Shown here piece after piece: positions 1,340-20,259 of a stretch of DNA of 64,000 nt. Origin of the DNA: Bacteroidales bacterium (GTDB taxonomy: Bacteria; Bacteroidota; Bacteroidia; Bacteroidales; F082); NCBI GenBank assembly GCA_045606865.1, contig JAZUST010000145.1, positions 9,359-73,358 on the forward strand, written 5' to 3'. The notes beneath the pieces are model-generated. The model worked only from the letters and a program-made list of their open reading frames with translations, was not told where the DNA came from and ran no database searches. Within the stretch, counting starts at the first letter, position 1; every line of letters begins with the position of its first letter. The position numbers and the translations under genes were made by a program.

Positions 1340-1343
1340 TGAG

Positions 1344-3659: not shown

Positions 3660-3667
3660 ATTGTGAG

Positions 3668-4174: not shown

Positions 4175-4192
4175 AAAGAGGGTGTATCAAAA

Positions 4193-4747
4193 TTGGTTTT
4201 AAAAATGTCAAAAGACAAAACCTTAGTGATTACAAAGTCAGGCACTACATATAAAAATGAGCACAACGCCGAGACAATAAAAATTATCATGCCAAAACAA
4301 ATTGACAACAAAGACTTAAGGCAGTGTTCAATTTGGCTGAGTTTTATGAATGAAGAAAAACTTGGCAAAGCAATTGATGTGTCTGAGTTTTTAACAGACT
4401 ACTCCTCTACTTACTACTATATTGAAATACCAATGGATAACATTTTTACCTATGTTGCTGGTAAGATTCAAATATGGTTAAAGTTGTTGGATAGTCAAAC
4501 TGAAATGGTTGATTTCACCAATTATGTTACTCACTATATCCACAAGCATCCTGACGAAGAACTTGAGGGCGAAATAACTGAGCAGGAACGGTCTGTATTA
4601 GAAAGTCTGACATTTAAACTTGATGCAACCTCTATTCAGTTAGGTGAAGTAACCGCTAAGGTTGAGGATATTGATGAATATGTAAGCGAGTTACAAGAGG
4701 GCGAAGTATTATTAGTACAGCATAGCAATGATGAAAACGAAGAATAA
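4193..4747 (+). CDS. hypothetical protein
   Basis: TTG 4193 (AGAGGGTG SD 8 nt upstream) or ATG 4205. 184 aa with an acidic C-terminus. TAA stop. Confidence 0.7.
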   Translation: MVLKMSKDKTLVITKSGTTYKNEHNAETIKIIMPKQIDNKDLRQCSIWLSFMNEEKLGKAIDVSEFLTDYSSTYYYIEIPMDNIFTYVAGKIQIWLKLLDSQTEMVDFTNYVTHYIHKHPDEELEGEITEQERSVLESLTFKLDATSIQLGEVTAKVEDIDEYVSELQEGEVLLVQHSNDENEE

Positions 4748-4827
4748 ACTGGTTGAAATGCCAGTTTTATCTGGATTTTAAAAAACTTTAATAATAAAAA
4801 TATAAAGCAGAAATGAGGATTTAATTT

Positions 4828-5064
4828 ATGATTAATTATTTTAGAATGAAAATGGCAGAATGGAAAGTTAAAGGTCTGTTCTATGGTACGATTGCTTCTT
4901 TTGTAGATAACAAGTCTGGCAGACTACAGACAATTTTGAATTTGATTGATTCTGTTAAAGGATTGACAGGAGAAGAACTGAGAACAGAATTTATTTCTGG
5001 TCTTGCAGGAATTATACACGATGAGGCTGAATTGGCTCGTCAGAATGAGACCAATGAAGAGTAA
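4828..5064 (+). CDS. hypothetical protein
   Basis: ATG after a GAGGA SD. 78 aa. TAA stop. Confidence 0.65.
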   Translation: MINYFRMKMAEWKVKGLFYGTIASFVDNKSGRLQTILNLIDSVKGLTGEELRTEFISGLAGIIHDEAELARQNETNEE

Positions 5065-5102
5065 TGAAATGTCTCTTTTATAGTGAAAATTGAGGTGATT
5101 TG

Positions 5103-5528
5103 ATGGCGAGAACATTTTCAACAGTTGTCGAGTTACAAAAACATATGGAATCTGCTTGTCGTAAAGCCGTAGAAAATGCTTGTAATAGGCTTCTCGGACG
5201 ATTACAGGAAATACTTGATGAAGAATACTATGATGTTTTTGAGCCTGAGCGTTATAAACGTACTATGTCTTTCTGGAGGTCGGCTACGACAAAAATGTTA
5301 GATAATACTTGCGGTCAAGTATTTATGAATCCCGATGTTATGCATTATAAAGCAGGTTGGTCAGGTAAAGCACAGATTGAGTCAGCCGCCAAAGGTTTAC
5401 ATGGTGGTTGGGATTATGAAGGTGTTAGCGACCATAAATATTGGGAAGTTTTTATAGCATACTGTGAAAAAAATGCACTAAAAATACTCAAAGAGGAATT
5501 AAGGGCGCAAGGGATTCCGATTAAATAG
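5103..5528 (+). CDS. hypothetical virion protein (weak HK97-gp10-like resemblance)
   Basis: ATG 4-5 nt after a GAGGTGA SD. ...YDVFEPERYKRTMSFWRS... resembles the Y..P..Y.RTG.L motif of gp10-type tail-completion proteins. Confidence 0.7.
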   Translation: MARTFSTVVELQKHMESACRKAVENACNRLLGRLQEILDEEYYDVFEPERYKRTMSFWRSATTKMLDNTCGQVFMNPDVMHYKAGWSGKAQIESAAKGLHGGWDYEGVSDHKYWEVFIAYCEKNALKILKEELRAQGIPIK

Positions 5529-5552
5529 AGAATAATATATCGAGGTGATATT

Positions 5553-5738
5553 GTGACGAAAAAGCAAGAGAAAGAATTGGAAAATAAAATCAAAGTTATT
5601 ATTGATGAACAGCGTATACAAGGTATAAAAGCTGGAGCAAAAGGAATTTTGGGCGCTGTCTTAAAAATGTGTAATGATGGCAAGACAGTTGCGGATATAA
5701 AAGAGTTTTGTGAAAAAAGTCTTGGCGCTACGAAATAA
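5553..5738 (+). CDS. hypothetical small protein
   Basis: GTG start after a GAGGTGA SD. 61 aa. TAA stop. Followed by a strong terminator. Confidence 0.6.
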   Translation: MTKKQEKELENKIKVIIDEQRIQGIKAGAKGILGAVLKMCNDGKTVADIKEFCEKSLGATK

Positions 5739-5774
5739 TTTCCCCGTTTATAAATCTTAATATGAAACTACCTA

Positions 5775-5803
5775 CTCCCTTTTTCTAATGGGAGGTTTTT
5801 TTT
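5775..5803 (+). terminator. intrinsic terminator
   Basis: CTCCC/GGGAG stem with a 10-nt loop, followed by TTTTTTTT. Confidence 0.7.
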
Positions 5804-5837
5804 ATACAAATTTTTAGAAAAGGAGGAGAATAATTAT

Positions 5838-7271
5838 ATGGATGATTTTATAGTCAAACTGATTGCGCGGTTAGATGCGAGCAAAACAAAGACCGATTTA
5901 AAAAGTATCGAATCTGACCTTAATGCGAGAGGAATAAACTTAAAAGCAAGTTTAGATACTGCTACCACAAAACAAGAATTAAAAAATTTAGCATCTCAGT
6001 TACAACAAATCCTTAAATCACAAGGTTTGGATATCGGAACCGACAAAATACTCGCAGGAATAAATCAAGTAAAACGAGAAGCGGCGAGTATGAAGAAAGT
6101 TCTTAGTGAAACAGATAAAGTTTCGGCTTTGACGAAGTTTCAAAATTATATGACTAAGAACACCAATATAACAAAGGCTGCAAAAAATCAAATTTTTGAG
6201 TGGATAAGAACGATAGAGAGTGCTGACGAATTAACTCGTGATGACTTAAACAATATTAACGCCCAGTTTAAGCAATTAGATACCAATATGCGAATGTCTG
6301 GTAGATTAGGTTTATCGTTTGGTGATTCGATTAAGAAAGGTATTGCTTCTTTCTCTGCTTGGCTTCCGGCAACAACAATTGTAATGGGCACTATCAATAC
6401 CATCAAGACAGGGATTAGGGATGTAAGAGAATTTGATGATTCTTTGCTTGAACTTTCTAAGGTCTCTGATTTATCAGCAGATGGACTTGCAAGAGTAACC
6501 GATGAGGCATATAAACTTGGTGATCGTGTTGGTAGAACAGGAAGGCAAGTTGTTGATGCGGTTACAGAATTTAAGCGTGCTGGGTTTGAATTAAATGACA
6601 GTATGGACATGGCTGAGTCTGCATTAGTTATGACTAATGTTGCTGAAGGTATTGATGATACAGCGGATGCTGCTGGAACTCTTATCTCTGTACTTAAGGG
6701 TTATAATATGGCTGAATCTGAGACAATGAACATTGTTGATAAGATTAACCAAGTATCAAATACAAGCCCTATTGGATTTGACCAAATTGCCGAAGGTCTT
6801 GAAAGAACTGCTGGCACAATGGCTCAAAGTGGTACGACGATTGACGAAACAATTGGTTTGATTACCGCCGGTTATGCACAACTTCGTAACGTTGAGAAAG
6901 TTTCTACTTCGCTCATCACACTGTCTGCAAGACTTCGTGGCGTTGATGAGGATGGTAATAAGATAGATGGCTTATCAGCAGAACTCCAAGATAGTTTTGG
7001 TAAGATTGGCGTTGCTATTGAAGACGCTGACGGTAATTTGAGAAGTATTTATGCCATTGCAAAAGATTATGCCGAAGTGCTTCCTACCCTATCAAGTAAG
7101 CAGAAGCAGTATTACGCCGAGCTTGCTGCTGGTAAACGTAATGTAACCACTTGGAACGCTATTACCCAACAGTTTCAAGATGCTGAACATGCCGTTGCAC
7201 AGTCATTAAATTCGGTTGGTAGTGCGGCTGAAGAAAATGAAAAATACTTAAAAAGTGTAAGTGGTAGAGTT
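5838..7271 (+). CDS. tail tape-measure protein, coding segment 1 of 3 (3' boundary approximate, about +/-10 nt)
   Basis: AAGGAGGAG SD. TP901-type TMP core (...SLLELSKVSDLSADGLARVTDEAYKLG..., ...VTEFKRAGF..., ...GFDQIAEGLERTAGTMAQSG...). TMP-like sequence ends at ...ENEKYLKSVSGR(V). The remaining 26 codons to the TAG at 7347 lie in intron RNA. Confidence 0.85.
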
Positions 7272-7650
7272 TACCACGTTATGCAGAAATGTATAACAAG
7301 AATGAATTTAATTGCAGGTAATCCCTTAGAGCCTTGCACCACAATATAGGAGAAATCACTATATGATGGTTTTAAAACGTAAGGATTGGGTGTTCGTGCA
7401 GCCAAGTACCCTAACGTATCCCGTAAAACATACGGTGTTTAGTCGAGGGTAAAGGTTCAACGACTAGATTCACGTCGAGTTGTAGACAAGAGAATAAGGG
7501 TGGAAATCCCGAATATCTACAACAACAATCGTAGGGCGCAATCGCAAATGGCGTGGGTGAAAATCCCTTAAATCGAAAAGGTCACTCTTAACACGTAATG
7601 GTGAAGATGAAGAAATAGTCTAAACTCTATTGAAAGGTAGAGATGTTGTT
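7272..7650 (+). ncRNA. group I ribozyme core of intron 1
   Basis: Dense, comparatively G+C-rich non-coding stretch with the R/S elements and several hairpins. No SD-led ORF. Confidence 0.65.
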
Positions 7651-7706
7651 GATTATATGAGGAATTGATTACTCCTCGCTTATTATTTATAAAAGGAATG
7701 AAATAA

Positions 7707-7895
7707 TTGAATAACAAGTATAAGTGTGAATCTGTACGCTTGTGCAGATTTTTATACTCGCTTGGTTTTGATAAAGAATCAAAACTTGATGAAAACAAAA
7801 AAGAATATTGGTTATTTGAAAGAAGTCCTGACTTACAAAAGTCTTTGGATTTCTTTTTTATTATGAGAAAGAAAAAAGAGAGAATATATAAATAG
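7707..7895 (+). CDS. small intron-borne ORF, DUF5659-like (tentative)
   Basis: TTG start after AAAGGAA. ...CRFLYSLGFDKES...KKEYWLFERSPDLQKSLDFF... resembles the 2599..2793 product type. Confidence 0.4.
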   Translation: MNNKYKCESVRLCRFLYSLGFDKESKLDENKKEYWLFERSPDLQKSLDFFFIMRKKKERIYK

Positions 7896-7921
7896 GTGTA
7901 TTTCAAGGAGCGAATGATTGT

Positions 7922-10420
7922 ATGACAATTATACAAGATGATTTAATGAAAAAGATTATAGAAGATTATAATGCTGGTTTAAGTCCAAACAAATTGAGCG
8001 AAAAATATAATGATTTTTCACCATATCAAATCCGAGAAAATTTGAAGAAGCGCGGTGTTTTTCGGACGCTTTATTTTACAGACGATGAGTTAAAAAGCAT
8101 CAAAGAAGATTTCGAATCTGGTCTTACACTAAAACAGTTGGTGCAAAAATATCATAGACCGGAAGAAACCATAAGAAAAAAATTACAATCCTTTGGTTTG
8201 TATGATGCAAGAGTTCAGTTGCCCTACAGTAATGAAGAAGTAGCTATTTTAGAAAAATACTACCCACTTGGCGATTGGGATAACCTTTTTAAATTTTTGC
8301 CTAATAGAGACAGGACTTCAATCTCAACAAAAGCATCTAAATTAGGGATATCACAAACAGATTGGAATTGGGACGAATGCCGAGTGAAAGAAGTGTTAAA
8401 TAAAAAGGGTTATACATTGCTAACGAAATTTGAGAATATCAAAAACAAGCATAAACTAATTGACTCTAATGGGTATCTGTATTGCTGTACATTAATGGGA
8501 CTTATTTATGATAAGAGTTTGCCTTTAATATTTTCACAAGATAATATTTATACGATTGATAATATTAAAACTTATATAAAACTAAACAATATTAATTGTG
8601 AATTGGTTTCTAACACTTATACAAATAATACATCGGATTTAAGTTGGAAGTGTCGTTGTGGAAAAATTTTTCTTTGCCCGTGGGCAAGGTTTCAAGCAGG
8701 GAAACATCAATGCAACGAATGCTCAGAGATAGAGTCGTTTGATAAGATTTCTTTCTCAATTGATGATGTGGAAAAAATGATAGAGGGTAAACCTTATAAA
8801 ATGATAAGAGATACTTTTACGAGGCTATCAAATGGTTTTACTGCAATAACAAATGACGGATATTATGTGTTGGTTGATAAAAATAATATATACAAAAACA
8901 CAATGCCAGAGATATTTCACACCAACAACCCTTACACAATAGACAATATAAAACATTATATTGAGATCAATGGTATTCGTACAAAATTAATATCTACTAC
9001 TTATGATAATAACAGCAAAAAACTAAAATGGGAGTGTGGCTGTTGTGGTAAAGTATTTGATAGAGGATGGAACTCATTTTTAAATGGTGCAACAGAGTGT
9101 TTAAATTGCTCTTCTACTAAGCGTGGTATAAATAGTAGAATTTCAGCTTTTGAAATTAAAGAATTTATTGAAAGCAACGGTTATTATTTGGGTGAAAATA
9201 TTGAGGATATTGCAATATCCAATAAGAAGTTTTCTATTTATGATGATGAAGGATATTTTTATGAAACAACATGGAGTCATATGAAAAGCCATAAAACTCC
9301 AGAAAAATTTCATCCTAACAACAAACATACTATTAACAATATTAATCATTATATGGACTTACATAGAAATGGCGAATATCAATGCATTAGCAAAATATAT
9401 AAAGCGAATGATGGGATTATGAAATTCAAACACACTCCTTGCGGCTGTGAGTTCAAAGCAACATGGACAGAAATGCAAGGAAAGTTGATGTTGAATAAAA
9501 AAGATAGATATTTTAAACAATGTCCTAATTGTAATACTAATAAAACTGAATCTATACATGCATCAACATTAAAGCAAGTATTTTTACACGAGCATCCTGA
9601 TACTATTACCGAAGATAAAAGCTGTATAAATCCTAAAACCAACAGACCTCTTCCGACCGACATTGTTAATCATAGATTGAGAATTGCCATTGAGATTCAA
9701 AGTGACTATCATGACACAGAAGAAAGAAAGTTGGTTGACACATTTAAAAAGGAATTTTGGCTTGACAAAGGATACGCTTTTTATGACCCAGATATAAGGG
9801 ATTATTCTATTTTAGAAATGGTTCAAATATTTTTCCCAAATATATCAAGCATACCAAAGTATGTAGATTTCAAATTCTCGGACTGTATAGATTTTAGGAA
9901 AGTACAAAAACTGTTAAACGGCGGGCGTACGATATCAGAAATTTCAAAAATACTAAACATAAAAAAGGGTACTATACAAGGGTTTATCAATAATAAAAAG
10001 GTTATTTTACCGAAAGATTATAAAAGGAAGGTTTTTAATATCAAACCAATAGTACGACTTTCTAAAAGTGGAGAATTTATGGAAAGGTTTGAGTCTTTAT
10101 ATGAGATTAACAACAAAGGGTTTGCTTCGGGAACTGTTGGACGAGTTTTAAGGGGAAAGCAGTCGTTTTCATATGATAGTTTTTGGGTTTATGAAGAAGA
10201 TTATCTATGTGAAAATTATAAAATACCTGAAATAGAGTTTGATAAATTCACACTGCCCGTAGATAAATATGATATGAACAATGTTTTCATTTGTAGTTAC
10301 ACATCGATATATGAAGCAGAGTTAGATTCTAAATCAAATAGAAATGAGATATATCGTGTGGCAACAGGAAATAGAAAATCATGCAAAGATGAAAAGTGGA
10401 AATTGCATAAAGTAGCCTAA
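7922..10420 (+). CDS. intron-encoded homing-endonuclease-like protein: HTH repeats, three zinc-ribbon modules, PD-(D/E)XK (EDxHD/Vsr-like) nuclease core, NUMOD-like C-terminal repeats
   Basis: 832 aa. There are three ~110-aa repeats, each ending in C.CG...W..F..G...C..C. The putative nuclease core is ...PLPTDIVNHRLRIAIEIQSDYHD.... The C-terminus has two ...F.S.YE......G....VLRG... type modules typical of HEG DNA-binding domains. Confidence 0.8.
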   Translation: MTIIQDDLMKKIIEDYNAGLSPNKLSEKYNDFSPYQIRENLKKRGVFRTLYFTDDELKSIKEDFESGLTLKQLVQKYHRPEETIRKKLQSFGLYDARVQLPYSNEEVAILEKYYPLGDWDNLFKFLPNRDRTSISTKASKLGISQTDWNWDECRVKEVLNKKGYTLLTKFENIKNKHKLIDSNGYLYCCTLMGLIYDKSLPLIFSQDNIYTIDNIKTYIKLNNINCELVSNTYTNNTSDLSWKCRCGKIFLCPWARFQAGKHQCNECSEIESFDKISFSIDDVEKMIEGKPYKMIRDTFTRLSNGFTAITNDGYYVLVDKNNIYKNTMPEIFHTNNPYTIDNIKHYIEINGIRTKLISTTYDNNSKKLKWECGCCGKVFDRGWNSFLNGATECLNCSSTKRGINSRISAFEIKEFIESNGYYLGENIEDIAISNKKFSIYDDEGYFYETTWSHMKSHKTPEKFHPNNKHTINNINHYMDLHRNGEYQCISKIYKANDGIMKFKHTPCGCEFKATWTEMQGKLMLNKKDRYFKQCPNCNTNKTESIHASTLKQVFLHEHPDTITEDKSCINPKTNRPLPTDIVNHRLRIAIEIQSDYHDTEERKLVDTFKKEFWLDKGYAFYDPDIRDYSILEMVQIFFPNISSIPKYVDFKFSDCIDFRKVQKLLNGGRTISEISKILNIKKGTIQGFINNKKVILPKDYKRKVFNIKPIVRLSKSGEFMERFESLYEINNKGFASGTVGRVLRGKQSFSYDSFWVYEEDYLCENYKIPEIEFDKFTLPVDKYDMNNVFICSYTSIYEAELDSKSNRNEIYRVATGNRKSCKDEKWKLHKVA

Positions 10421-10483
10421 TCAACTACTGATATACATAATCAACAACTGGTTGAATTTTGCGAATTCAATTGAATATATTTG

Positions 10484-10677
10484 AAAGTTACAATGTTTGA
10501 AAGTGCTGTTGAAGACTTGTCAAACAGTGCAATAGATTCAGAATTTATAAAGGGTATAATAGAACTTGGAACAACAGGCGTTAAAGGTCTTGATGCTTTT
10601 ATTGAAAAGTTTGGAATGTTAACAACACTCCTTGGTGCTGGTGGCATAATTGCTGGCATCAAAAACGTTGGTGGACT
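10484..10677 (+). CDS. tail tape-measure protein, coding segment 2 of 3 (both boundaries approximate)
   Basis: Frame open only from 10475, with no SD or start of its own. ...FESAVEDLSNSAIDSEFIKGIIELGTTGVKGLDAFIEKFGMLTTLLGAGGIIAGIKNVGG... continues the TMP pattern. Confidence 0.7.
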
Positions 10678-11250
10678 CAAATTCAGGGAGTCTTTGTTTT
10701 GAATTGCCTGACCTATCATTGTATAGAATAATCGGTCTATACAACAAATGGGAATACTCTAGCGTTTTAAAATAAATAGAGATGGGTTATATGGTCTACT
10801 CAGTAGACATCTCCGACAACTGGAGGTCTGGGACGTGACATAGAATTATAAGGCTACAATAGAAAATTGGAAACGATAAACTATGAATGCAGGTATGAAA
10901 AGTACATAAAAACATATAATTCGGTTTCTGGGCGTAAAGTCAAAGAACTATATGCGACTCATAATTATAATATCGTAAAGTCACTATCAGCAGATAAATC
11001 ACCTAAGTCATTTGATATGGTGAAATCTCAACGACTACCATCCATCTTATAGCAACACGATAGATTGCTATAGGAACGTATAGTCTGTACTGGCACCGAA
11101 TATGAGGCGGTGTAAAGTTGTAGTGCTATCTTATCAGCATATTTGTGGAACTCTCATTGCCGGAGTTGATAAGAAGGCAATAGAACATGAATTTCATTGG
11201 CAGAATTTAGACATAAAAATAAACACTCAACGATGAGTGTTTCGTGGCAT
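10678..11250 (+). ncRNA. group I ribozyme core of intron 2
   Basis: R/S elements 50 nt apart and P9-like hairpins (ATTGCC...GGCAAT about 11155-11185; AAACACTCA/TGAGTGTTT about 11220-11243). Only a spurious 61-codon ORF is present. Confidence 0.6.
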
Positions 11251-11320
11251 AATATAAACATTTGTGCGCATTATGAATACAAAGTTAAGCAAAATGTATT
11301 GTTTTAGTAGCCTTTTGGTA

Positions 11321-11349
11321 TTGACAAGTGTAAAGCAATTTGGTATAAT
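11321..11349 (+). promoter_or_regulatory. consensus sigma-A-type promoter
   Basis: TTGACA (11321-11326), a 17-nt spacer, then TGgTATAAT (-10 at 11344-11349 with an extended -10 TG). Confidence 0.75.
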
Positions 11350-11355
11350 ACATAT

Positions 11356-11473
11356 AGAAAAAGACAAAAGAGACGGAGATATCGGTCAAATATCTCAATG
11401 GTTTCCCTTTTTGTTTATATGGTTACATAAAATGTAGAAACCACTTCAACGGAGGAAATTGAGGTGGTTTTTA
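11356..11473 (+). ncRNA. candidate ~115-nt sRNA (antitoxin-like), runs from the promoter to the shared terminator
   Basis: Bounded by the consensus promoter and the hairpin+T5 terminator. No SD-led ORF. Its 5' part AAAGACAAAAGAGAC (11361-11375) can pair with the peptide mRNA leader. Confidence 0.5.
11436..11473. terminator. bidirectional intrinsic terminator shared by the convergent sRNA and peptide transcripts
   Basis: 9-bp stem CCACTTCAA/TTGAGGTGG (one G-U pair) with A-rich 5' and T5 3' flanks, so a U-tract is present on both strands. Confidence 0.7.
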
Positions 11474-11480
11474 TATGTTT

Positions 11481-11549
11481 TTATCTCGGTTTTGCAATAA
11501 GGAGCAATACCAGAGTTACAATTAATACGTAGTAGAAATCGTAATTCAT
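11481..11549 (-). CDS. 22-aa hydrophobic peptide MNYDFYYVLIVTLVLLLIAKPR (type I toxin-like)
   Basis: GAAAGGAGG SD 5 nt upstream of the ATG. TAA stop. Single TM-like core with a basic C-terminus. About 110-nt leader in which CCTTTC can sequester the SD. Confidence 0.55.
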   Translation of the reverse strand: MNYDFYYVLIVTLVLLLIAKPR

Positions 11550-11669
11550 ATCGACCTCCTTTCTGCCACCTACGGGGAGATGGACTTGCGAAAGGAAAAC
11601 CACCCTAACCATTCTTACAAAGACCAAAAGAAACTCAGAACAATTAAGCGTCTCTAATGTCCAATGAGC

Positions 11670-11698
11670 ATTATACCATTATTGTCGAATATTGTCAA
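11670..11698 (-). promoter_or_regulatory. consensus sigma-A-type promoter for the peptide mRNA
   Basis: On the minus strand: TTGACA (11698-11693), a 17-nt spacer, then TGgTATAAT (-10 at 11675-11670). Confidence 0.75.
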
Positions 11699-11702
11699 TA
11701 TA

Positions 11703-11730
11703 AAGACACCTTCGGGTGTCTTATTTTTAT
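11703..11730. terminator. intrinsic terminator (strong on +, usable on -)
   Basis: AAGACACC-TTCG-GGTGTCTT followed by ATTTTTAT on the + strand. The minus-strand flank is TTATATT. Confidence 0.75.
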
Positions 11731-11746
11731 GCCCGTTAATAAAACG

Positions 11747-11773
11747 ATAGCACCCTACTTGGGTGCTATTTTG
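11747..11773. terminator. intrinsic terminator (ends the minus-strand cassette; also followed by T-rich sequence on +)
   Basis: ATAGCACCC-TACTT-GGGTGCTAT. The minus-strand flank is CGTTTTATT and the plus-strand flank is TTTG. Confidence 0.7.
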
Positions 11774-11816
11774 ATAAGAATTATGTATAGGAATTTTAAC
11801 GAGAGGATTTGATTTG

Positions 11817-11957
11817 ATGAAGCATCACTATATCAGAAAAATTAAACTTACAGATGATATAACGCTCGTGATATATGGATATACTCGTTTTGGCAAAGAC
11901 CATAATGAGTCTTGTCATTTAAAGTTCAAAAACGGCGAAATATATCCTATTGTTTAG
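11817..11957 (+). CDS. possible 46-aa ORF (MKHHYIRKIKLTDDITLVIYGY...)
   Basis: ATG 9 nt after GAGAGGA. TAG stop. Overlaps the 3' end of the convergent gene by 11 nt. No family recognised. Confidence 0.3.
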   Translation: MKHHYIRKIKLTDDITLVIYGYTRFGKDHNESCHLKFKNGEIYPIV

Positions 11958-12360
11958 GTGTCATTTGTATCCAGTCTAAAATTAATGATAACAACGCTAT
12001 CCCCAATGCAAAAAGAGAAATGACGAGAGCCGCCCACTTGTGAAAACCTTCTTTGCGTTCTTTGGCTCTTTTCTCTTTTTGGTGCTGAATATAATAATAG
12101 GCATCAAGGGTTATAAGATACTTGCCCGTATATTCATATTCGGCAGGTTCAATAAAATTGCCATCTTTATCCTTGATTGCATCTCTAACTTTAAATTGAT
12201 GTAGTTTGACAAACTCTATTGTACGAAGAATGTCTGCTACTTGTTTGTTTTTGATGTTAAAAGGTATATCCATCTTGGCACGTTTAATTGCTTTATATTG
12301 TTCAGGTGGCAAATATATATCTTCTGGGTGTATTTGGTCTGGTGTTTTAAGTACGCTCAT
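11947..12360 (-). CDS. C-terminally membrane-anchored protein, unknown function (intron cargo)
   Basis: ATG after AGGAGAGGATAC. 137 aa. Single C-terminal TM helix (WAALVISLFALGIALLSLILDWI). TAG stop. Confidence 0.75.
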   Translation of the reverse strand: MSVLKTPDQIHPEDIYLPPEQYKAIKRAKMDIPFNIKNKQVADILRTIEFVKLHQFKVRDAIKDKDGNFIEPAEYEYTGKYLITLDAYYYIQHQKEKRAKERKEGFHKWAALVISLFALGIALLSLILDWIQMTPKQ

Positions 12361-12395
12361 ATGTATCCTCTCCTATTGAGTTTGTGGGTTGGTTA

Positions 12396-12713
12396 TTAAA
12401 AATCACTCTTACAACTATTACAATGCCATTGTTTTGTGGTTTTACCCAATGCAAAGATACCCCATAATGCTACACTACCTGCTTTTGATAAGCCTGAGAT
12501 TTTCTTGCAATCGGTTGACTTGCAGTATGGACAGGTTATTGTTGGGGTTGAGGGTTGGGGTTTTGAATTTGATGGCACATGTGCATCTGGAGGGTATTCT
12601 ATTTTTTCTGAATTTTCTATCGTTTTAAGTTTATAATTACACTTTACACAATATTGGTCGTAATCTCTATACACTTTATTACAAACAGGACACTGTTTCA
12701 TAGTATTACACAT
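12396..12713 (-). CDS. double zinc-ribbon protein, unknown function (intron cargo)
   Basis: N-terminal CPVC...CVKC ribbon, Pro/Ser linker, then C-terminal CPYC...(GSVALWGIFALG)...CNSC module. Start is ATG 12713 or 12701. Confidence 0.75.
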   Translation of the reverse strand: MCNTMKQCPVCNKVYRDYDQYCVKCNYKLKTIENSEKIEYPPDAHVPSNSKPQPSTPTITCPYCKSTDCKKISGLSKAGSVALWGIFALGKTTKQWHCNSCKSDF

Positions 12714-12733
12714 CCTTATTTATTTTTTTTATT

Positions 12734-12762
12734 ATTATAACATATTATAGACGAATTTTCAA
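12734..12762 (-). promoter_or_regulatory. sigma-A-type promoter of the opposite-strand cassette
   Basis: On the minus strand: TTGAAA (12762-12757), a 17-nt spacer, then TATAAT (12739-12734). Lies about 20-35 nt upstream of the 12396..12713 start. Confidence 0.65.
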
Positions 12763-12877
12763 TATAATTACAATTTTTGGTATCCTTTTTATTATAGTTT
12801 TTGCTGTCCACAAGCATTTAATATCATTATAGTACGAAAATCAAAGCAATTTTTAAAATAGATAACATTAAGGATGG

Positions 12878-15800
12878 TCTTCAAGTCACATCATGGCAAG
12901 CATTAAGAGGTGGTATTGTAGCCACCACAAAAGCTATGGGGGCATGGCTTATTTCTAATCCAATGGGTTGGATTATCCTTTTGGGCGGAACAATCGCTGC
13001 CACCGTTGGATTAGTTGACTTATTTACAACTTCAGTAGAGGAGCATAGAGAAAAACTTGAAAGCCTGAAGTCCGAATATTCTGATATAAAATCCGAGTTG
13101 GATGGTTTAAAAGGTGAGTTAGACGGCACTCAAAGTAGAATAAATGAACTTGAAAACAAAGGGAAACTCACATTTACCGAAGCCGAAGAGTTAAACAATT
13201 TAAGAAAACAAAATAACGAATTACAACGTAGTATTGACTTATTAGAACTTCAGAAAAAAACAAAAAGTAAAGAGACCAATAATCAGTTTATTGAGACGAT
13301 GAACTCAGATATTGAACAAGAACTTTATACTAGAAATGAGAATGGTGAAGTCGTTCAATATATGCCTATGAGCGGTCAAACGGCTACCGATGATAACGAA
13401 GCAGATTATATAACTCAACGCTTTAAAGATTTAGAAAAGTTGAGGGACAAATTATCTTCTGCGTCTACAGAAGCTGAAAAAGAACGTATAAAAAGGCAGA
13501 TTAAAGGCATAGAAGATTATTTTGTTCAAAAAAACAAAGATTTTACCGAAACTGCTAAAGGCATAGACTATATTCAAAATCCTACCACAGAGGATGATAA
13601 AAAAGTCAATAAATGGCTCGACTATATCAACGACTTCCAAGATAAAATGGCTGTTGCTATGGATGGTGAAAATGCTAAAGAAAATGCTTTTAATCGACTT
13701 GTGGATAACTGGAAATTCGATGAAGCATTAAATCCATTACAAAAGCTCGGCAAAGAGGGTAAAGTTACTTTAGATGAACTCAAAAAGAGAATGGACGACC
13801 CTGTTTTTGTTAAGTTTGTCAACAAATTAAAAGATATAGGTTTTATTTCTGATACGACAGATGGTAGTTTAAGATTCCTTGCAAATGCTTTTAATGGAAC
13901 TACTCAGGCAGCCAGAAGTTATGTAAATCAATTATCAGACTTATCTTCTATTAAAAAGTTTATTAGTAATATTGATGAGGAAGCAAAAGCTCTTGGAACA
14001 ACCAAAGAAGCTTTGGGTGACCTTGTACAAGAACATATTTTGTTTAACAATACCGGATTAGATACAAGTGGTCAAATTTCTGCCTTACAGTTGTTGGGTT
14101 CTACTATAGATGGACTTTCTGGAAAAACAACGCGTCTAATTTCTCTTTTAAAGTATGCTGCTGGAGATTTCTCTGGAAGCAAGCTATCGGCTGGCACTGT
14201 TTACGATGCGGATGGAAACGCAATACATAGAACCGAAGATGAGATAAGAAATATTAATGCAAGACGACAAGGAAGTGCTCAGGCTGAATTAGATAAAATG
14301 AAAAAGGATTGGGAAAAGATTCAGGGTTTATTTAAAGAGGATGGTAATGAGAATCCCCCACCTTATACATCCGGCGATGACAAAGACTCCTCTTCCTCCA
14401 AAAATTCTGCTCTCGATAACTATCTCAAAGATGCTGAAAATCGTTACAAAATTCATCAAGACGAAACCGAGTACATCAACGACCTTAACTATGCACTAAA
14501 CAACCTAGTTAAAACAGAAGATGAGCGTCTTGATGTAACGGGCAAAATAAACGAGGCATATCGTGACCTTGCTGATAATCGCATTAAAGACCTTGAACAT
14601 CAAATTGATTTAACCAAGGAACTTAAAGGCGAAAATGCTGATGTAACATCTCAATACAAAGAAATTCAGAAAGTTGCAATTGAAGAAGCCGAAAGACTTC
14701 GTGCCATGGGCTATGACAATAATTCAAATGAAATACAGGCTCTTCAAAAGACTTGGTGGGATGCCGAAAATAGTAAACTTGACTTTTACTCTAAGCAACA
14801 TGAAATAATTCTTCGTGATATAGAGCACGCTCGTGACATGGTGCTTAATGCCGATGAAGATGCGAATGTAACTTCGTATTATAAACAACTCCAAGACGAA
14901 TATCATAGAGAAGCTGAAAGACTTCGTGCATTAGACCCTGAAAAATACAAAGAAGACATTCAGGAACTACAGCAGTTATGGTGGGATGTTCAGAACGAGA
15001 TGCTTGATTATAACAAGCAGGTTGTAGAAGACTTCCTTGATGAACTCCAAACCAAACTTGATGACTCTTACGACATTCGTATTAGTCGTCTAAATTCACA
15101 GTCCTCCCTCCTCTCAAGTCACTTCAACATAGTTAACGCAATTGCAGAGGAACAGCACAATCTTAACAAAGAGCTACTTGAGGCTGAAACAATTGGTGCT
15201 AAAATGAGTGAGCAAGAAAGAGAATCTTTACTTACTCGTGCCGAGCATAACAAACTTTCAGGAAAACTCAGTAATATAATGCTCGATATAACCGACTTAC
15301 AAAGCGATTATATGCGTGACCTTGAAAAAGCAACCGAGGACACGATTGAAGAAGTTACAAATCAGTATGAGCGTCAGTATGAACTGAAGATGAAAGAGTA
15401 TGAGATTATTAAGGCTGAACTAAACTTAATTAAAAAGCAACAAATACTTGAAAATACTCAAAATGAAAAATCGGTTAGAACTTGGAATGGCTCTAGTTGG
15501 ATATATGAAGCAAACCTTCAAGATGTATTAGATGCTCAGGAAGAAGTAGAAAATGCTAAGTATGAACTTGCAAGAGCGCAAGCTGAAGAGGCTCAACAAG
15601 TAGCTTTAAACGCTATAGACGCTAATGCTGATGCTTTAGAAACAGAAAAGAATAAACTAACATCTGTTATAGAAGATATGGCAGAGAGAATGGATGGTTC
15701 TGGTAAAGATATTACATCTATGTTAAAAACTATTGCCGAAACAGATTTACCTACATTTGATGCAATAATTCAAAGTATGGGTGAAAGCATTAAGGAAGCA

Positions 15801-16388
15801 TTAAATTTATCTGATGACGATATTAATGCTTTTCGCACTAGCAGTAACTTTACAATTAACCCCCTTGCAGAAATGAAGAAAAATTCTAGTGCATGGCATA
15901 CAGCAACAACACAAGAAGAGAGAGATTCTTTAGTAAGTGCAAATAAAGTTTATGCTAGAATGCTTGGTCTTGAGTATGAAGAATCTACAGGCAGATGGAA
16001 AAAGAAAGATGGCACTTATGCTTATGCATCTGGAACTAAAAATGCTAAAAAAGGCGTTGGCTTATTTGATGAAAAAGGCTTTGGTTCTGAAGTCGTTCTT
16101 ACAAATGATGGTATACTTACACAGTTTAATGGTGGCGAGAGAGTATTTTCACCTGAAATGGCTGATAGGTTATGGGAAATGGCACAGAAAAATAATATTT
16201 TAACCCCGTCAATAAGACAGCCTGACTTAAGCAATGTAACTACAATTGAAGAGAGAATTAACAATGCGATAAATAACGCTATAACCAATAATGCTTTCGG
16301 TGATACATACATGATTAAAGATGTACAAGTAAATGATTCTAACAACGCAGTCAGAGGATTTATGAACTACTTGAAAAAGATAGTTTAG
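12878..16388 (+). CDS. tail tape-measure protein, coding segment 3 of 3 (5' boundary approximate)
   Basis: Frame open from 12831. The first ATG (12936) has no SD. A TM-like segment (WLISNPMGWIILLGGTIAATVGLV) is followed by more than 1100 aa of coiled coil with internal repeats. TAG stop. Confidence 0.85.
14634..15020 (+). repeat. in-frame tandem repeat (75-codon period, about 1.7 copies) inside the TMP
   Basis: GAAAGACTTCGTGC is identical at 14691-14704 and 14916-14929 (225-nt offset). Protein repeat is ...NVTS.YK..Q....EAERLRA...........IQ.LQ..WWD..N..LD.... Confidence 0.8.
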
Positions 16389-16459
16389 TATTTATAACCT
16401 AAATGAATCAGAAGGAGGAATATTAAAAGGATTTATAAACTACTTGAAAAAGAAAGTTT
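16355..16459 (+). repeat. direct repeat of the last ~32 nt of the TMP gene
   Basis: AGGATTTATGAACTACTTGAAAAAGATAGTTT (16355-16386) versus AGGATTTATAAACTACTTGAAAAAGAAAGTTT (16428-16459), 30/32 identical. The second copy lies just before the terminator. Confidence 0.85.
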
Positions 16460-16467
16460 GATAATTT

Positions 16468-16497
16468 GGAGGGGTACGTCCCCTCCTCCTTTTATTT
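16468..16497 (+). terminator. intrinsic terminator
   Basis: GGAGGGG / CCCCTCC stem with a TACGT loop, followed by TCCTTTTATTT. Confidence 0.75.
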
Positions 16498-16506
16498 AGA
16501 GACAAT

Positions 16507-16848
16507 ATGGATAATGCAAATGAAATTGATTATGAATTATTAAAAAATCTAATAGAAAAACTCGTTGAAAAAAAGGTTTATGAAATTTTAAATAATCTCG
16601 GTATTGAATCTGTTTCCTCTGGAAAGGTTGTTGCTCTGGATAAAACAAGAGCTGATGCAGAAGGAAATATTACAGAGGTTATTAGAGCTAGTGTAGAACT
16701 TGCGGATGGTGAAGTCGTTTCAAATATCTTTAATGCAAGTGAAAAAATATTATCTGTAGGAGATAATGTTAAGATATATGGTTCAAGAACCAATATGTCA
16801 AATAGATATATAGGAATAAAATATGAAAGTGAGGTGGTATTGTCATGA
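16507..16848 (+). CDS. hypothetical virion protein
   Basis: 113 aa. The stop (TGA, directly followed by TAA) overlaps the next start (ATGA). Confidence 0.7.
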   Translation: MDNANEIDYELLKNLIEKLVEKKVYEILNNLGIESVSSGKVVALDKTRADAEGNITEVIRASVELADGEVVSNIFNASEKILSVGDNVKIYGSRTNMSNRYIGIKYESEVVLS

Positions 16849-18992
16849 TAAATAAACCGATTAATCCAAGTCCGCATAATTGTTGTGTTGATATAGATGA
16901 AGATGTTCATATTAAATACGAAATTCCAAATGCTAAAATAGATGGATGTGTTACTTCGATAAATGATTTAGATACTGGAAGTTGTGTATTGTCTCAACGT
17001 AATAATTATGACGAAGCAACGAATCAAGTTAATTTAAATTTTGAAAAATCTTTAGAAAATAAAGGAGAGTATAGTTGGGATTCATTTTACTGGCAAACAC
17101 CTGTTAAAACTGCAAATACTCATATTGTTTCAAATATCGATGTATCTGCTAATAAGTTATTTTTAAAACCAAGTGGCAATTATACACATAAAGAAACAAT
17201 AACATATAAAATGGATGGAGATTCAAGATATGATAGTTTCTCGCCAGATTATTATATAGAATATAATGCCGAATCGTATAGAAAAAGTCTTTATGAAGAC
17301 CAACATATATTAGGAGATGATACAAGTGAATACTGTTATAAAGGAAATTTAGAAGATTATTTTGGGTTTACTGCTTTTTGGATAAGTGGTGATATGCTAG
17401 ATACTATTTTAGGAATTGGAGTTGGAAAGTGTATAATTGAAGTATACAATGATGAGGATAAATTAGCAGCTAGAACAAGGGTACTTGCTTATGACATATA
17501 TCGTGGAAATACTGGTACTAATAATGCGTTATGTATTATCGATAATAAAGACTTCGATGAACAGATGGAGAATTCTGGGATTATAGGTATTTCCTCTTAT
17601 TATGACCCCGGCAAAATATATAAAATAAATAGTATAGCTTTTTATAATATTGATGACTTAAACAAACAAGCAAACATTAGTGGCTTAATGGAATATGGAG
17701 ATAATTACTATCTAGTGAAAAATAGCAACTTTATTGAACATAATTATACATTATCAGTCTATCCAAGTATTCCTACTAATATACAAATTGGAGACGAAAT
17801 CAGCGTTTGGAATCACGAAATGGCAGAGTTTAACACAACACCTAGTTATTACTTTCGTTTAAAAACGCCGCCAGACATTACTATAAATGATTATTCTCAA
17901 TTTGAGATAGATGATGATATTAATTATCTTAGGGATATTAACTGTAAATTTGGACTTAATTACAACTCATTAGATATTAAATTAAACTACTACTATCTAT
18001 ATTTATATGTTTTAAACCCTAAATCTCATAAATGGGAAATTAAAGAACGTTCTCCTATGTTATATAACCTAGAAGATACATATGAATTCAAAGGTTTAGC
18101 AAACGGTCAGGAATATAAAGTTTATGCGGTTTGTACTGACAGTGACGGCGATGAATGGACTACTGATGAAATTGAGTTTGTTGTAGACCCACTATTAGTA
18201 ACAATCGATATACCGACTGCTTTCAATAAAAAGAATGCTACTATAGAACTATATGTAAAAGAAATTCTAAACAGATATACAAAATATGTGCATTTAGAAT
18301 TTTATCGTGTTTTTAAAAAAGATATTGATGCTGTAAAAAATTTAGAATATGCAGGCGAGGTAATAGGTAAAATTAGTGAGCTAACCATTTGTAATAAATG
18401 GAATGATTACAATATAAAAAACAACTCATATTACGACTATTATGTTCGTGTTAATTATACAGGCAAACAATCATACGAAGATAAAGGTGTAGACATTTAC
18501 CATGTAAATTCAGACATTTATACTGATTTTGAAGGAACCTCAATTTTATCTTTAGAAAAAACTTCAAATGATAAATTAGCTATAAAATATAGTTTCAACC
18601 TCCTCTACCATTTTGATAGCAATATGAATGAATTAACATATGAAATTAGTCGTGATTATATTAATTCATTTAGTAAATATCCAAAAGAACTAAAAGGACA
18701 TCAGAACTATATTACAAGTTCATGCTCAGGACTACTTGGTAGTGAAAACAATGGCATCTATGAAGAACCAAAAGATATACGAGCTGCATGGAGTAATTTT
18801 GTAAATGATGATAGTATAAAGCTTTATAGAGGTCTTGATGGCGAAACAATGATAATCAGTATAGAGACAAGTAAAATTAAGCCGTATAATTATCCCAGTG
18901 TAGGATTAGTAAACGAAGTGCATTTTACTTTTAAAGAAATTGCCTCGGCTGATACTTATGCTATTTTTACAACAGAAATAGTAGGTGATTAA
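16845..18992 (+). CDS. large tail-tip/distal-tail structural protein (by position)
   Basis: 715 aa. Translationally coupled on both sides, directly downstream of the TMP. No enzymatic motif recognised. Confidence 0.85.
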   Translation: MINKPINPSPHNCCVDIDEDVHIKYEIPNAKIDGCVTSINDLDTGSCVLSQRNNYDEATNQVNLNFEKSLENKGEYSWDSFYWQTPVKTANTHIVSNIDVSANKLFLKPSGNYTHKETITYKMDGDSRYDSFSPDYYIEYNAESYRKSLYEDQHILGDDTSEYCYKGNLEDYFGFTAFWISGDMLDTILGIGVGKCIIEVYNDEDKLAARTRVLAYDIYRGNTGTNNALCIIDNKDFDEQMENSGIIGISSYYDPGKIYKINSIAFYNIDDLNKQANISGLMEYGDNYYLVKNSNFIEHNYTLSVYPSIPTNIQIGDEISVWNHEMAEFNTTPSYYFRLKTPPDITINDYSQFEIDDDINYLRDINCKFGLNYNSLDIKLNYYYLYLYVLNPKSHKWEIKERSPMLYNLEDTYEFKGLANGQEYKVYAVCTDSDGDEWTTDEIEFVVDPLLVTIDIPTAFNKKNATIELYVKEILNRYTKYVHLEFYRVFKKDIDAVKNLEYAGEVIGKISELTICNKWNDYNIKNNSYYDYYVRVNYTGKQSYEDKGVDIYHVNSDIYTDFEGTSILSLEKTSNDKLAIKYSFNLLYHFDSNMNELTYEISRDYINSFSKYPKELKGHQNYITSSCSGLLGSENNGIYEEPKDIRAAWSNFVNDDSIKLYRGLDGETMIISIETSKIKPYNYPSVGLVNEVHFTFKEIASADTYAIFTTEIVGD

Positions 18993-18993
18993 A

Positions 18994-20259
18994 ATGTTAT
19001 ACTTGAATTTTACTGATAAAAACAATAATACTGTTATAGATAAAATTGACCGTGATTTTCTTGTAAAGGATTCAACAGTAAGAAAATTAAGAAATTTAAC
19101 TATTGATGAAATTAAGGAATTAATTAACGATAGCTCCATAAAATATACCTTTTATCTATATGCTCTTTATGATGACGAAACAATAAAGGAAGATTTGAGT
19201 AGTTATGTTTTAAAAGGTGGAAATTTATCTATTAATTATAATTGTGGTATAAGAAGACAACTCTCAATTAGTATTATGAACGAAAAAAATTGGACTCCAC
19301 AACCTTTTAATGGATTTCTTTGGAAAGGTTCAAAATTCAAACTTGAAATTGGTATTACAACAACACTTGCCGAGTATATTTTCCCGGCAGGTGTTTTTAT
19401 TTTAAAAGACTTTGAATTTCCCCACAAATATTCTAAAAACGAAATTAAAATGGAAATGGTAGATAAATTTGGAGGTCTTGATGGCACAGTAGGCGGAAAG
19501 ATTGTTGATAGTATTTATATACCAAGAGGTTCAAATATCGTTCAAGTTGTTAAAAGTCTTTTAAAGTCTGAAAAAATCGAGGGTAATTGTTTCGACAACA
19601 TAACTCCTCTATTTCCATCTTGGGCTTTTAATGAAACAACACCTTATACCATTACAGAGTCTTCAGATTCTACAATTGGAGATTTAATCATTAAACTGCT
19701 TTCAATTATTAATTTGGATGTGTTTTACGATGAATATGGTCGTATGAGTTTTGAAGAAATGCGTGAAAATATGCTTGTAGACTCTTTGCCGTCTTTATGG
19801 ACTTTTGAAGACGATGAAAGTATTTATGATTTTCATACAATTAAAATAGACCTTCAATCAGTAGAAAACATAATAATTGTAGAAGGTGCAAACATAAATG
19901 GAGATATTATTAGTGCAAAAGCAGAAAACTTAAACCCAAAGTCCCCAACAAACATATCTGTGTTTGAACCCAAAAGATGTAAAATAGTTGATGAAAATAT
20001 AATGTCTTTGGGTAACGCATATTTACGTGCTAATTATGAATTATTTAAACGTTCATTGCTTCCAATCTCTGAGAATTTTTCTACAATCTTAATACCAATC
20101 TTAAATGTAAATAATGTCATTACCATTAACGATAAATATTGTGGATTTAAACATGTTAAATTTCTTATTAATTCAATTGATATACCTATAGATAGTATAG
20201 TCAAAACAAATATGACGATAAGTAATTTAGAGGAGGTGGCATTTAGTGTCAAACAATAA
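18994..20259 (+). CDS. tail-tip/baseplate structural protein (by position)
   Basis: ATG 5 nt after AGGTGA (track start at GTG 18985). 421 aa. Overlaps the next gene by 14 nt. Confidence 0.85.
   Translation: MLYLNFTDKNNNTVIDKIDRDFLVKDSTVRKLRNLTIDEIKELINDSSIKYTFYLYALYDDETIKEDLSSYVLKGGNLSINYNCGIRRQLSISIMNEKNWTPQPFNGFLWKGSKFKLEIGITTTLAEYIFPAGVFILKDFEFPHKYSKNEIKMEMVDKFGGLDGTVGGKIVDSIYIPRGSNIVQVVKSLLKSEKIEGNCFDNITPLFPSWAFNETTPYTITESSDSTIGDLIIKLLSIINLDVFYDEYGRMSFEEMRENMLVDSLPSLWTFEDDESIYDFHTIKIDLQSVENIIIVEGANINGDIISAKAENLNPKSPTNISVFEPKRCKIVDENIMSLGNAYLRANYELFKRSLLPISENFSTILIPILNVNNVITINDKYCGFKHVKFLINSIDIPIDSIVKTNMTISNLEEVAFSVKQ

Follow-up and report, generated by a model that had tools for sequence, protein, structure and literature searches.

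A 64,000-nt stretch of contig JAZUST010000145.1 (the window), assigned to a Bacteroidales bacterium, was analysed around the tape-measure protein (TMP) gene that it carries. The segment 10673–12836 is probably one group I intron in the TMP gene of a temperate phage, with a loop that houses accessory modules of the opposite strand (probability about 0.75, judged from the sequence). A preliminary description of this DNA had proposed a group I intron without a homing endonuclease gene (HEG) that shelters self-promoted opposite-strand genes. The proposal was supported by a collinear TMP, by the P1 and P10 pairings together with a terminal G, by a helix closing the loop, and by cargo that varied among relatives. 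The segment, named intron 2, was compared with 12 related loci (L001–L004, L035, and L094–L101), and the features of the region are listed in Table 1.

Predicted exons, splice sites, and ribozyme of intron 2

The TMP gene was divided into three exons. The open reading frame (ORF) 5838–7349 contained the N-terminal part of the TMP and overran the end of exon 1 at 7265, the position at which the tblastn matches of uninterrupted TMPs stopped exactly. The homologue P0001 (548 aa, 99% identical) read through the intron 1 site (...KYLNSVSG↓KVTMFES), and intron 1 was therefore fixed to follow U7265 and to end with G10483. The Rfam model Intron_gpI matched 7255–7642 over the full model with 53.6 bits in E-value mode. 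The ORF 7922–10420 of intron 1 was not part of the TMP; it was HNH-type endonuclease-like, with repeated helix-turn-helix and zinc modules, and matched PHROG 559 (HNH endonuclease) at 1.7e-34. This ORF was unusually long and contained three tandem copies of a ~125-aa module (...NIYTIDNIK.YI...W.C.CG..F...C..C...). The close relatives L001 and L002 were without intron 1.

The short frame 10475–10702, which includes exon 2, carried typical TMP sequence. The exon 2 region was included in 77 of the 120 homologues of the N-terminal part, and 72 of these 77 ended within 25 aa of its last residue. Beyond ...KN.G, the tails of the homologous ORFs were unrelated and unconserved, which gives them the appearance of read-through into an intron. 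Distant relatives (L006–L008) had uninterrupted TMPs of ~2300 aa, which matched the window up to 7265 and again at 16014–16244, where the tblastn matches corresponded to their own C-termini. The local alignment of an uninterrupted TMP over exon 2 and the start of exon 3 was collinear.

The frame of the ORF 12936–16388 was already open from 12822. The preliminary description had placed the reopening of the TMP frame at 12877; this was revised to a predicted 3′ splice site after G12836, with exon 3 starting at 12837. It had also considered that the third segment might have its own start. No in-frame start codon with a ribosome-binding site (RBS) was present in the first 80 codons of exon 3 in any of nine loci, whereas most genuine genes of the window have one. 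Protein conservation started right at the predicted junction with the motif [KN]I[KF]KT, and the last part of exon 2 resembled the beginning of exon 3. Exon 3 is, by this sequence evidence, predicted not to be an independent gene. All 12 loci contained an N-terminal ORF followed by 1.4 to >5.9 kb, and nine contigs reached the long open TMP frame. Gene callers annotated the TMP as two ORFs in every relative.

The P1 helix was formed between the last six bases of exon 2 and a GCCNNN guide located 27–52 nt into the intron, always with a U·G pair at the junction. It was paired in 11 loci, and its six pairs, including U·G, were kept over nine ribozyme variants by compensatory changes. The exon end and guide were GUUGGU/GCCAAC in L095, GUCGGU/GCCGAC in L098 and L101, AUCGGU/GCCGAU in L094, UUCGGU/GCCGAA in L002, GCAGGU/GCCUGU in L099, GUAGGU/GCCUAC in L100, CUAGAU/GUCUAC in L004, and GUUGGU/GCC(U)GAC in the window and L001. 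RNAalifold independently predicted the same helix from five sequences, with U·G in every row. The terminal G was found in all nine introns for which both ends were known, within AGUACG in seven, AGUAUG in L094, and AAAUAG in L004.

P10 was formed by the first bases of exon 3 and those directly 5′ of the guide, with runs of 8–12 bp in five of eight loci (window, L001, L002, L098, and L004). P10 was perfect over 12 bp in L002 and reached 8–11 bp in the window, L001, and L098, while L004 had a wholly different pair, GAGGGA/UCCCUU, in an 8-bp run. Random 12-mers gave runs of 8–12 bp in 0.05–3% of trials. P10 stacked directly on P1 only with U10672↓ and G12836↓, so that intron 2 was placed accordingly. 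The splice register GG↓...AG↓ of the group B IStrons was rejected, because the stacking of P10 on P1 needs the canonical U↓...G↓. An intein and ribosomal bypass were also considered and rejected.

Splicing of intron 2, as we infer it, would join ...GIKNVG to KIKAIFK... and give a single TMP of about 1720 aa. The predicted spliced RNA junction was ...AAAAACGTTGGT↓AAAATCAAAGCAATT, and the predicted peptide across the exon 2/exon 3 junction was GIKNVGKIKAIFK.

The first ~530 nt of intron 2 would form the ribozyme, composed of P1 with the guide, a P3–P9 core, and an elaborate domain 9. The motifs UCAACGACUA...AUAGUCU were the same as in the Rfam-validated intron 1. Helices were tabulated by script, as the MAFFT alignment of domain 9 misaligned short stems. 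Compensatory variants were found for P3 (GAGGAA/UUCCUC in L004 and AAGGGA/UCCCUU in L096) and for P7 (AGCAC/GUGCU in L004). P8 was represented by five different stems among the ribozyme variants, and P9.1 by four different stems with an invariant ACUUAUC loop. The two interleaved helices of domain 9 covaried as well, from AACUC/GAGUU to ACCCU/AGGGU and from UUGCC/GGCAA to AUGUC/GACAU. A group I catalytic core of intron 2 was supported but not proven by these helices. In L095, an insertion of ~230 nt flanked by GACAAC repeats was located between the domain 9 pseudoknot and the CATGAATTT motif. The preliminary description had let the ribozyme end at about 11250; its end was moved to about 11200, and the hairpin 11221–11242 was assigned to the cargo as a minus-strand terminator.

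When the 506-nt ribozyme of the window was compared with that of L001, eight substitutions were found, six of which keep predicted pairs. Four of these six were transitions to G·U, and the other two formed one double change from C–G to U–A. The ribozyme and exon 2 were 97–98% identical between the window and L001, whereas exon 1 was 81% identical, which suggests recent lateral transfer. When the region, exon 3, and the two types of ribozyme were used as queries in megablast, blastn, and tblastn against 50,697 phage records, no match was obtained. In a 17-mer scan of viral contigs, six of seven matches were chance and one was a real relative, L035. The domain 9 17-mer occurred once in the window, and all related copies lay at the orthologous TMP codon.

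The TMP genes of relatives were also broken at two or more further sites (homologues P0073–P0102 and P0093–P0120; loci L016–L028). One of these sites read ...AELAAG↓YSMINRVSSNVQKCA followed by a stop codon; another read ...SGFGK↓QVLLLVS and a stop codon, followed by 2.5–3 kb with two plus-strand ORFs. Many read-through tails of relatives ended with K[VICA]A and a stop codon, and the intron 1 ORF of the window ended with ...HKVA and a stop codon (10409–10420), which hints at a shared intron RNA element.

Table 1. Predicted features of the TMP gene and its introns, with positions in the window
Feature	Position	Strand	Details
TMP exon 1	5838–7265	+	Pfam PhageMin_Tail 6e-24; PHROG TMP families
Intron 1	7266–10483	+	group I core at 5′ end; 832-aa HNH-type endonuclease ORF 7922–10420 in 3′ tail
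TMP exon 2	10484–10672	+	63 aa, ends ...AGIKNVG; contiguous with exon 1 in P0001 and P0007
Intron 2	10673–12836	+	2164 nt; P1, P10, terminal G
Ribozyme part of intron 2	10673–11200	+	P1/P10 covariation; helix table across variants
P10 strand	10695–10705	+	adjoins 5′ side of guide
P1 guide sequence	10706–10712	+	GCCUGAC in the window
P3	10781–10785 with 11038–11042	+	GAUGG/CCAUC
P7	11033–11037 with 11081–11085	+	GACUA/UAGUC, within UCAACGACUA...AUAGUCU
P8	11048–11055 with 11065–11072	+	assigned by hand
P9	11094–11098 with 11108–11112	+	assigned by hand
P9.1 hairpin	11123–11127 with 11136–11140	+	assigned by hand
Closing helix, 5′ strand UUUGUGGA	11142–11149	+	directly after P9.1; complementary to 12807–12814
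Pseudoknot-like helices	11149–11153 with 11163–11167; 11157–11161 with 11176–11180	+	interleaved
Palindrome CATGAATTTCAT	11186–11197	+	marks left edge of variable region
Terminator, left edge of cargo	11221–11242	−	hairpin scan
Promoter, candidate antitoxin small RNA, and terminator	11321–11484	+	promoter 11321–11349; small RNA ~120 nt; hairpin 11432–11476 with U-run
Candidate type I toxin gene	11481–11698	−	promoter 11698–11670; 5′ untranslated region; RBS GAAAGGAGG; ORF 11549..11481 encoding MNYDFYYVLIVTLVLLLIAKPR
Back-to-back terminators between modules	11703–11769	+/−	plus 11703–11722; minus 11769–11747
137-aa protein gene	11947–12360	−	hydrophobic C-terminus, membrane helix
Zinc-ribbon gene	12396–12713	−	predicted double zinc ribbon; 105 aa, or 101 aa from second ATG at 12701
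Operon promoter	12762–12734	−	TTGAAA-17-TATAAT with TG, 11/12
3′ end of intron 2	12807–12836	+	closing helix 3′ strand UCCACAAG 12807–12814; terminal AGUACG, last G 12836
TMP exon 3	12837–16388	+	1183 aa, starts KIKAIFKIDNIKDGLQ...; C-terminus matches that of uninterrupted TMPs

Closing helix and cargo of the loop

The loop of intron 2 was bounded by the closing helix. Its 5′ strand, UUUGUGGA, was found 34–43 nt upstream of the CAUGAAUU motif in seven loci; in L100 it was 67 nt before the motif, where a nearer GUGGAA copy lay outside the helix table. In eight loci, UCCAC preceded the 3′ splice site by 18–25 nt and the helix enclosed loops of 1013–3972 nt. In the window, the closing helix would form a 1.66-kb loop and return AGUACG↓, the 3′ splice site, to the core for alignment of exon 3 by P10.

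The left edge of the variable region was marked by the palindrome CATGAATTTCAT(G) in ten loci. The boundary sequence (A)CAUG↓AAUUUCAU (11185–11199) resembled the 3′ splice junction UACG↓AAxAUCAAA (12832–12847), so that a degenerate direct repeat flanked the cargo; the boundary was conserved in ten loci. This repeat may be a relic of the 3′ splice site of an empty intron, may serve as an alternative splice site in a proximal position, or may be a palindrome bound by a protein (CATGAA-T-TTCATG).

The cargo was unrelated between loci and mosaic. L001 contained Peptidase_M78, HTH_3, and DUF6514 (ImmA/Xre-like), L002 contained DUF6173 and a lipoprotein, L098 a PemK toxin, and L096 a 333-aa lipoprotein. 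The loop of L095 (11864–17917) was >5.9 kb and held a 292-aa HTH_3 repressor-like gene, a Bro-N/ANT antirepressor-like gene, and an IS200-type TnpA; its contig ended before exon 3. L035 matched the window at 99% over 11141–11745, including the minus-strand terminator 11221–11242, and had a homologue of the zinc-ribbon gene, yet its ribozyme was of the L002 type. L001 diverged from the window after ~11200. The preliminary description had pointed to related phages, in which the intron might carry an HEG, be empty, or hold the same cassette. Different cargo was found at the same spot, and no recognisable homing endonuclease was present in the loops of the 12 relatives (precomputed Pfam lists). 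A closed loop would tolerate any insert and could act as a docking site for self-contained accessory modules, each of which, with host-type promoters and its own terminators, would be expressible from a silent prophage. The intron may thus be a docking bay for prophage accessory genes, among them toxin-antitoxin modules and genes for envelope proteins and regulators, across the phage clade.

In intron 2 of the window, no HNH, GIY-YIG, LAGLIDADG, or similar endonuclease was found with Pfam or PHROG, and no plus-strand ORF of the stretch matched any Pfam family, in agreement with the earlier view that a sense-strand homing endonuclease was missing. The accompanying claim that no sense ORF exceeded 46 codons did not hold when GTG and TTG starts were allowed (57, 51, 47, 54, 57, 52, 79, and 66 codons); most of these ORFs were shadows of minus-strand genes. 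The promoters reported previously were recovered, namely the minus-strand TTGAAA-17-TATAAT site at 12734–12762, with an additional TG, and the convergent pair of perfect TTGACA-17 sites. In a promoter scan of positions 1–20000, these three sites alone reached at least 11/12 with an extended −10 element.

The first module was composed of the convergent promoters and a short gene between them. The plus-strand promoter matched TTGACA-17-TGnTATAAT at 12/12 with TG, as did the minus-strand promoter facing it. The predicted fold of the plus-strand small RNA (sRNA) had an energy of −35.4 kcal/mol (z = −4.6) and an 18-bp terminal hairpin. The 22-aa peptide gene noted between the promoters exists with a strong RBS, and its strand was now specified as minus. 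Its product, MNYDFYYVLIVTLVLLLIAKPR, was hydrophobic, and the stop codon of the ORF abutted the shared terminator hairpin. In the predicted fold, the sequence UUCCUUUC of the 5′ untranslated region (UTR) paired with the RBS GAAAGGAGG, which would be masked. L035, with its different ribozyme, carried this module at 99% identity. Known toxin-antitoxin families were matched neither by sequence nor in Rfam, and a comparison of the sRNA with the toxin 5′ UTR for par-like direct repeats gave a single 15-nt repeat at 80%, which was not convincing. An assignment of this convergent module to the type I toxin-antitoxin systems is moderately favoured, with both promoter activity and toxin-antitoxin function predicted.

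The second module was a minus-strand operon with the two ORFs listed by the preliminary description, which were both found, the 105-aa protein with CxxC pairs and the 137-aa protein with a hydrophobic C-terminus. The 105-aa protein contained four CxxC pairs with weak Pfam zinc-ribbon matches and had >370 homologues, some of them chromosomal. Its C-terminal CPxC...hydrophobic...CNxC domain recurred in the minus-strand gene beside the 3′ splice site in L001, L004, and L035; the corresponding gene of L099 had only weak or faint precomputed Pfam zinc-ribbon matches. The 137-aa protein had 14 homologues and an AlphaFold model with a predicted local distance difference test (pLDDT) score of 84. It belonged to no family in Pfam or PHROGs, and Foldseek gave no fold match to the model. 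For the function of the two proteins, nothing significant was obtained from Pfam, PHROGs, PADLOC, NCBIfam, a PDB sequence search, AlphaFold, or Foldseek. Genes at this position in other loci encoded small proteins with C-terminal membrane helices or lipoproteins, which fits envelope functions expressed from the prophage. The operon likely has a role at the cell envelope, for example in superinfection exclusion.

A possible 47-aa plus-strand ORF (11814–11957) with a GAGAGGA RBS converged on the end of the 137-aa gene with an 11-nt overlap; no promoter was found for it. L002 shared the 86 nt upstream of this ORF, including the RBS, followed by a different ORF.

The homology of the modules broke at 11703–11769, where L035 shared sequence up to 11745 and L002 shared 11736–11821. 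Since these breaks fell exactly at the back-to-back terminators, each module appears to carry its own terminator. Of the three plus-strand terminators described previously, the hairpins at 11432–11476 (18-bp stem, U-run) and 11703–11722 were retained, whereas 11747–11769 was mainly a terminator-like hairpin of the minus strand, with a plus-strand tail of only three T. Terminator-like hairpins were enriched over 7000–13500, with nine against 2.5 ± 1.3 in shuffled sequences. The plus-strand hairpins would be most simply explained as the end of the sRNA and an insulator between the modules.

Late transcription and rival explanations

Most loci with gene calls carried SPbeta-type structural genes (precomputed Pfam YomN, YomU, YomV, YomW, YomX, YonB, and YonD), and the phage is therefore SPbeta-like; the clade would comprise SPbeta-like phages of gut Firmicutes. 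The temperate-phage genes of the window included a large serine recombinase (23743–25326), an endolysin (22985–23575), and genes for replication, encoded on the opposite strand. In SPbeta, 37 late genes form one operon transcribed by the phage polymerase YonO (PMC5467207). YonO is highly processive, bypasses pause signals, and is without the flap domain used in hairpin-dependent termination (PMC5467207). By analogy, late transcription may pass the intronic terminators in a YonO-like manner. Plus-strand hairpins with T-runs were also observed between other late genes at 1343–1364, 3617–3654, and 16468–16486, the last one GC-rich and directly after the TMP stop codon. Late transcription must therefore pass such signals anyway, and the intronic terminators are not evidence of a special control of the TMP. 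The TMP and the downstream genes are needed in few copies per virion, and partial termination might be tolerated.

Several points weigh against a spliced intron. P1 of the window requires one bulged U (GCC-U-GAC), P10 was weak in three of eight loci (L094, L099, and L100), and the closing helix was conserved with almost no compensatory change. The P3–P9 core was annotated by hand; P4–P6 were not placed, and the core of the other variants was not resolved. Rfam RF00028 gave no match to intron 2 at E ≤ 10, including 12-kb and 611-nt slices, and the group I model gave none in the intron 2 of the relatives, even with short slices. Since a whole-window Rfam run with gathering cutoffs also missed the valid intron 1, this miss was not taken as a refutation; the Rfam model and filters are insensitive for these phage introns. 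A junction-pattern search for an intron-less allele of the site found none, as 14 of 14 matches were chance. The ribozyme was separated from the 3′ splice site by two strong plus-strand intrinsic terminators, which would cut a transcript of the host polymerase, and the link to YonO is drawn by inference, such a gene presumably falling outside the 64-kb window.

The arrangement could instead represent two independent genes, TMP-N and TMP-C, with an ordinary intergenic accessory hotspot between them and a ribozyme-like sequence that is a dead relic or no ribozyme. The missing Rfam match, the two ORFs called in every relative, and the intrinsic terminators between both parts would be explained in this way. 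This arrangement is unlikely, however, because exon 3 had no RBS-preceded start within 80 codons in nine loci, protein conservation started exactly at the predicted junction, and the TMP-N tails past ...KN.G were unconserved read-through. A dead relic would not keep a guide and a P10 that covary with both exons, and the ribozyme was 98% conserved between phages with exon 1 only 81% identical. The strong plus-strand terminators (11432–11476 and 11703–11722) and a long-range helix able to hold two RNAs would also suit bipartite trans-splicing, in which the transcript ends at an intronic terminator and a separate 3′ RNA, which contains exon 3 and, ahead of it, the 3′ splice site with the closing-helix strand, associates by pairing in the closing helix and P10. 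A group I intron that is split within a peripheral loop can be active in trans. Such a mechanism is very unlikely here, as no plus-strand promoter was found between 11722 and 12807 (best candidates 9/12) and the hairpins between other late genes make read-through necessary regardless.

Excision of the island at the DNA level by site-specific recombination on induction, which would restore the TMP gene, is extremely improbable. The window encodes the large serine recombinase, the cargo is flanked by a degenerate direct repeat (G↓AAUxUCA), and exon 2 ends much as exon 3 begins; but no recombinase was present in the island in 11 of 12 loci, and excision leaves unexplained both the conserved structured 530 nt and the covariation of an internal sequence, 33–52 nt into the element, with the final six exon bases and the first bases of exon 3. 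Nor is a defective prophage with the TMP as a disrupted pseudogene given appreciable weight. The gene is interrupted twice and has terminators inside, but every exon was open (1183 codons for exon 3), and the layout recurred in >70 homologues of 50–99% identity, with exon 3 open over 725 to at least 1989 aa. Moreover, the TMP of the isolated viable relative Thomasclavelia phage TR-TP1 is also split by endonuclease-bearing inserts, with two sense-strand HNH genes. The TMP of Enterocloster phage PMBT24 is intact.

If 10673–12836 is one group I intron, its loop might in addition be a regulatory junction between lysogeny and lysis. Transcription of the opposite-strand cargo by the host polymerase and the intronic terminators would together prevent a leaky late transcript from yielding full-length TMP in the lysogen, only the dedicated late machinery would read through and allow splicing, and use of the proximal 3′ splice site CAUG↓AAUUUCA (11189/11190) would perhaps give a truncated TMP-N, so that virion production would be conditional on the intron context. 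This extension is doubtful.

Other genes of the window were observed around these features. A RuvC-like endonuclease gene (3668–4174) was located among the tail genes upstream of the TMP gene, and PMBT24 had a RuvC gene at the same position. The early region contained two tRNA genes (35034–35107 and 35246–35336, minus strand). At 53831–56198 and 60339–61916 (minus strand), it encoded an enzyme of the CCA-adding/poly(A) polymerase family with an HD domain, an RlaP-type RNA-repair nucleotidyltransferase, and a weak GmrSD-like nuclease, which look like a set for tRNA/RNA repair and counter-defence.

Comparison with known systems

If splicing is true, the ribozyme would turn the inside of a coding gene into a neutral landing site, and the intron would represent a new kind of hotspot for accessory or defence genes. 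Gene-by-gene annotation misses such a hotspot, since the TMP appears there as two unrelated ORFs. Intron 2 would also be a natural example of a group I intron with a structured, transcriptionally active insert of 1–6 kb, a case of interest for the design of engineered ribozymes and circular RNAs. The layout raises the question of how late transcription crosses strong terminators and head-on promoters.

The first module was similar to type I toxin-antitoxin systems in its predicted convergent transcription, the predicted overlap at a shared terminator, and the RBS that the 5′ UTR would mask. Type I systems of Firmicutes, such as par/Fst and the SPbeta-borne bsrG/SR4 and yonT/SR6, have a small hydrophobic toxin with a charged C-terminus. 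The 22-aa peptide of the window shares this character, but is shorter than Fst or BsrG and without a family match. Both modules resembled morons, with their own predicted sigma-A-type promoters and terminators in the late structural region of a prophage and a mosaic presence between relatives. Their content is typical of lysogenic conversion or defence, with toxin-antitoxin pairs, membrane proteins, and lipoproteins. However, classical morons are located between genes, whereas the modules of intron 2 lie inside a coding gene and would depend on RNA splicing.

When intron 2 was compared with the HEG-bearing phage introns (T4 td/nrdB/sunY, SPbeta bnrdE/F, and intron 1), the common features were an intron of the self-splicing type in an essential phage gene, an ORF region that, like that of intron 1, loops out of a peripheral helix close to the 3′ end, and signs of recent lateral transfer. 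The cargo of intron 2 differed in that it was on the opposite strand, self-promoted, and variable between loci, with no recognisable HEG in 12 loci, and the Rfam model failed.

IStrons such as CdISt1 (Clostridioides difficile) and BcISt1 (Bacillus cereus) contain a 5′ ribozyme, an extended domain 9, and cargo closed by an inverted-repeat stem (PMC4227781), and they are the closest known architecture for intron 2. In both, a group I ribozyme with an extended domain 9 is located at the 5′ end, and 1–2 kb of non-endonuclease cargo follows the last P9 sub-helix beside GAAC/GAAU, where intron 2 has AGAACAUGAAUUU. Flanking inverted repeats form a stem that closes the cargo, with the 3′ splice site a few bases further on, direct repeats surround the cargo, and the relative L095 holds an IS200-type TnpA in its loop. 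In contrast, no transposase family (tnpA/tnpB) was found with Pfam or PHROG among the loop ORFs of the window. Intron 2 carries as its cargo accessory modules that have host-type promoters and terminators of their own and lie mostly on the opposite strand, whereas the ORFs of IStrons are forward. Intron 2 occupies one orthologous site in a phage structural gene and its 5′ exon ends in the canonical U, while IStrons are multi-copy and dispersed.

In a literature search, which did not cover all journals, IStrons, endonuclease-bearing phage introns, and TMP introns were known, and no group I intron loop with opposite-strand, self-promoted accessory modules was described. The known cargo of group I introns, homing endonucleases and the transposases of IStrons, serves the intron, whereas the loop described here is apparently a clade-wide exchange site for accessory genes inside an essential structural gene.

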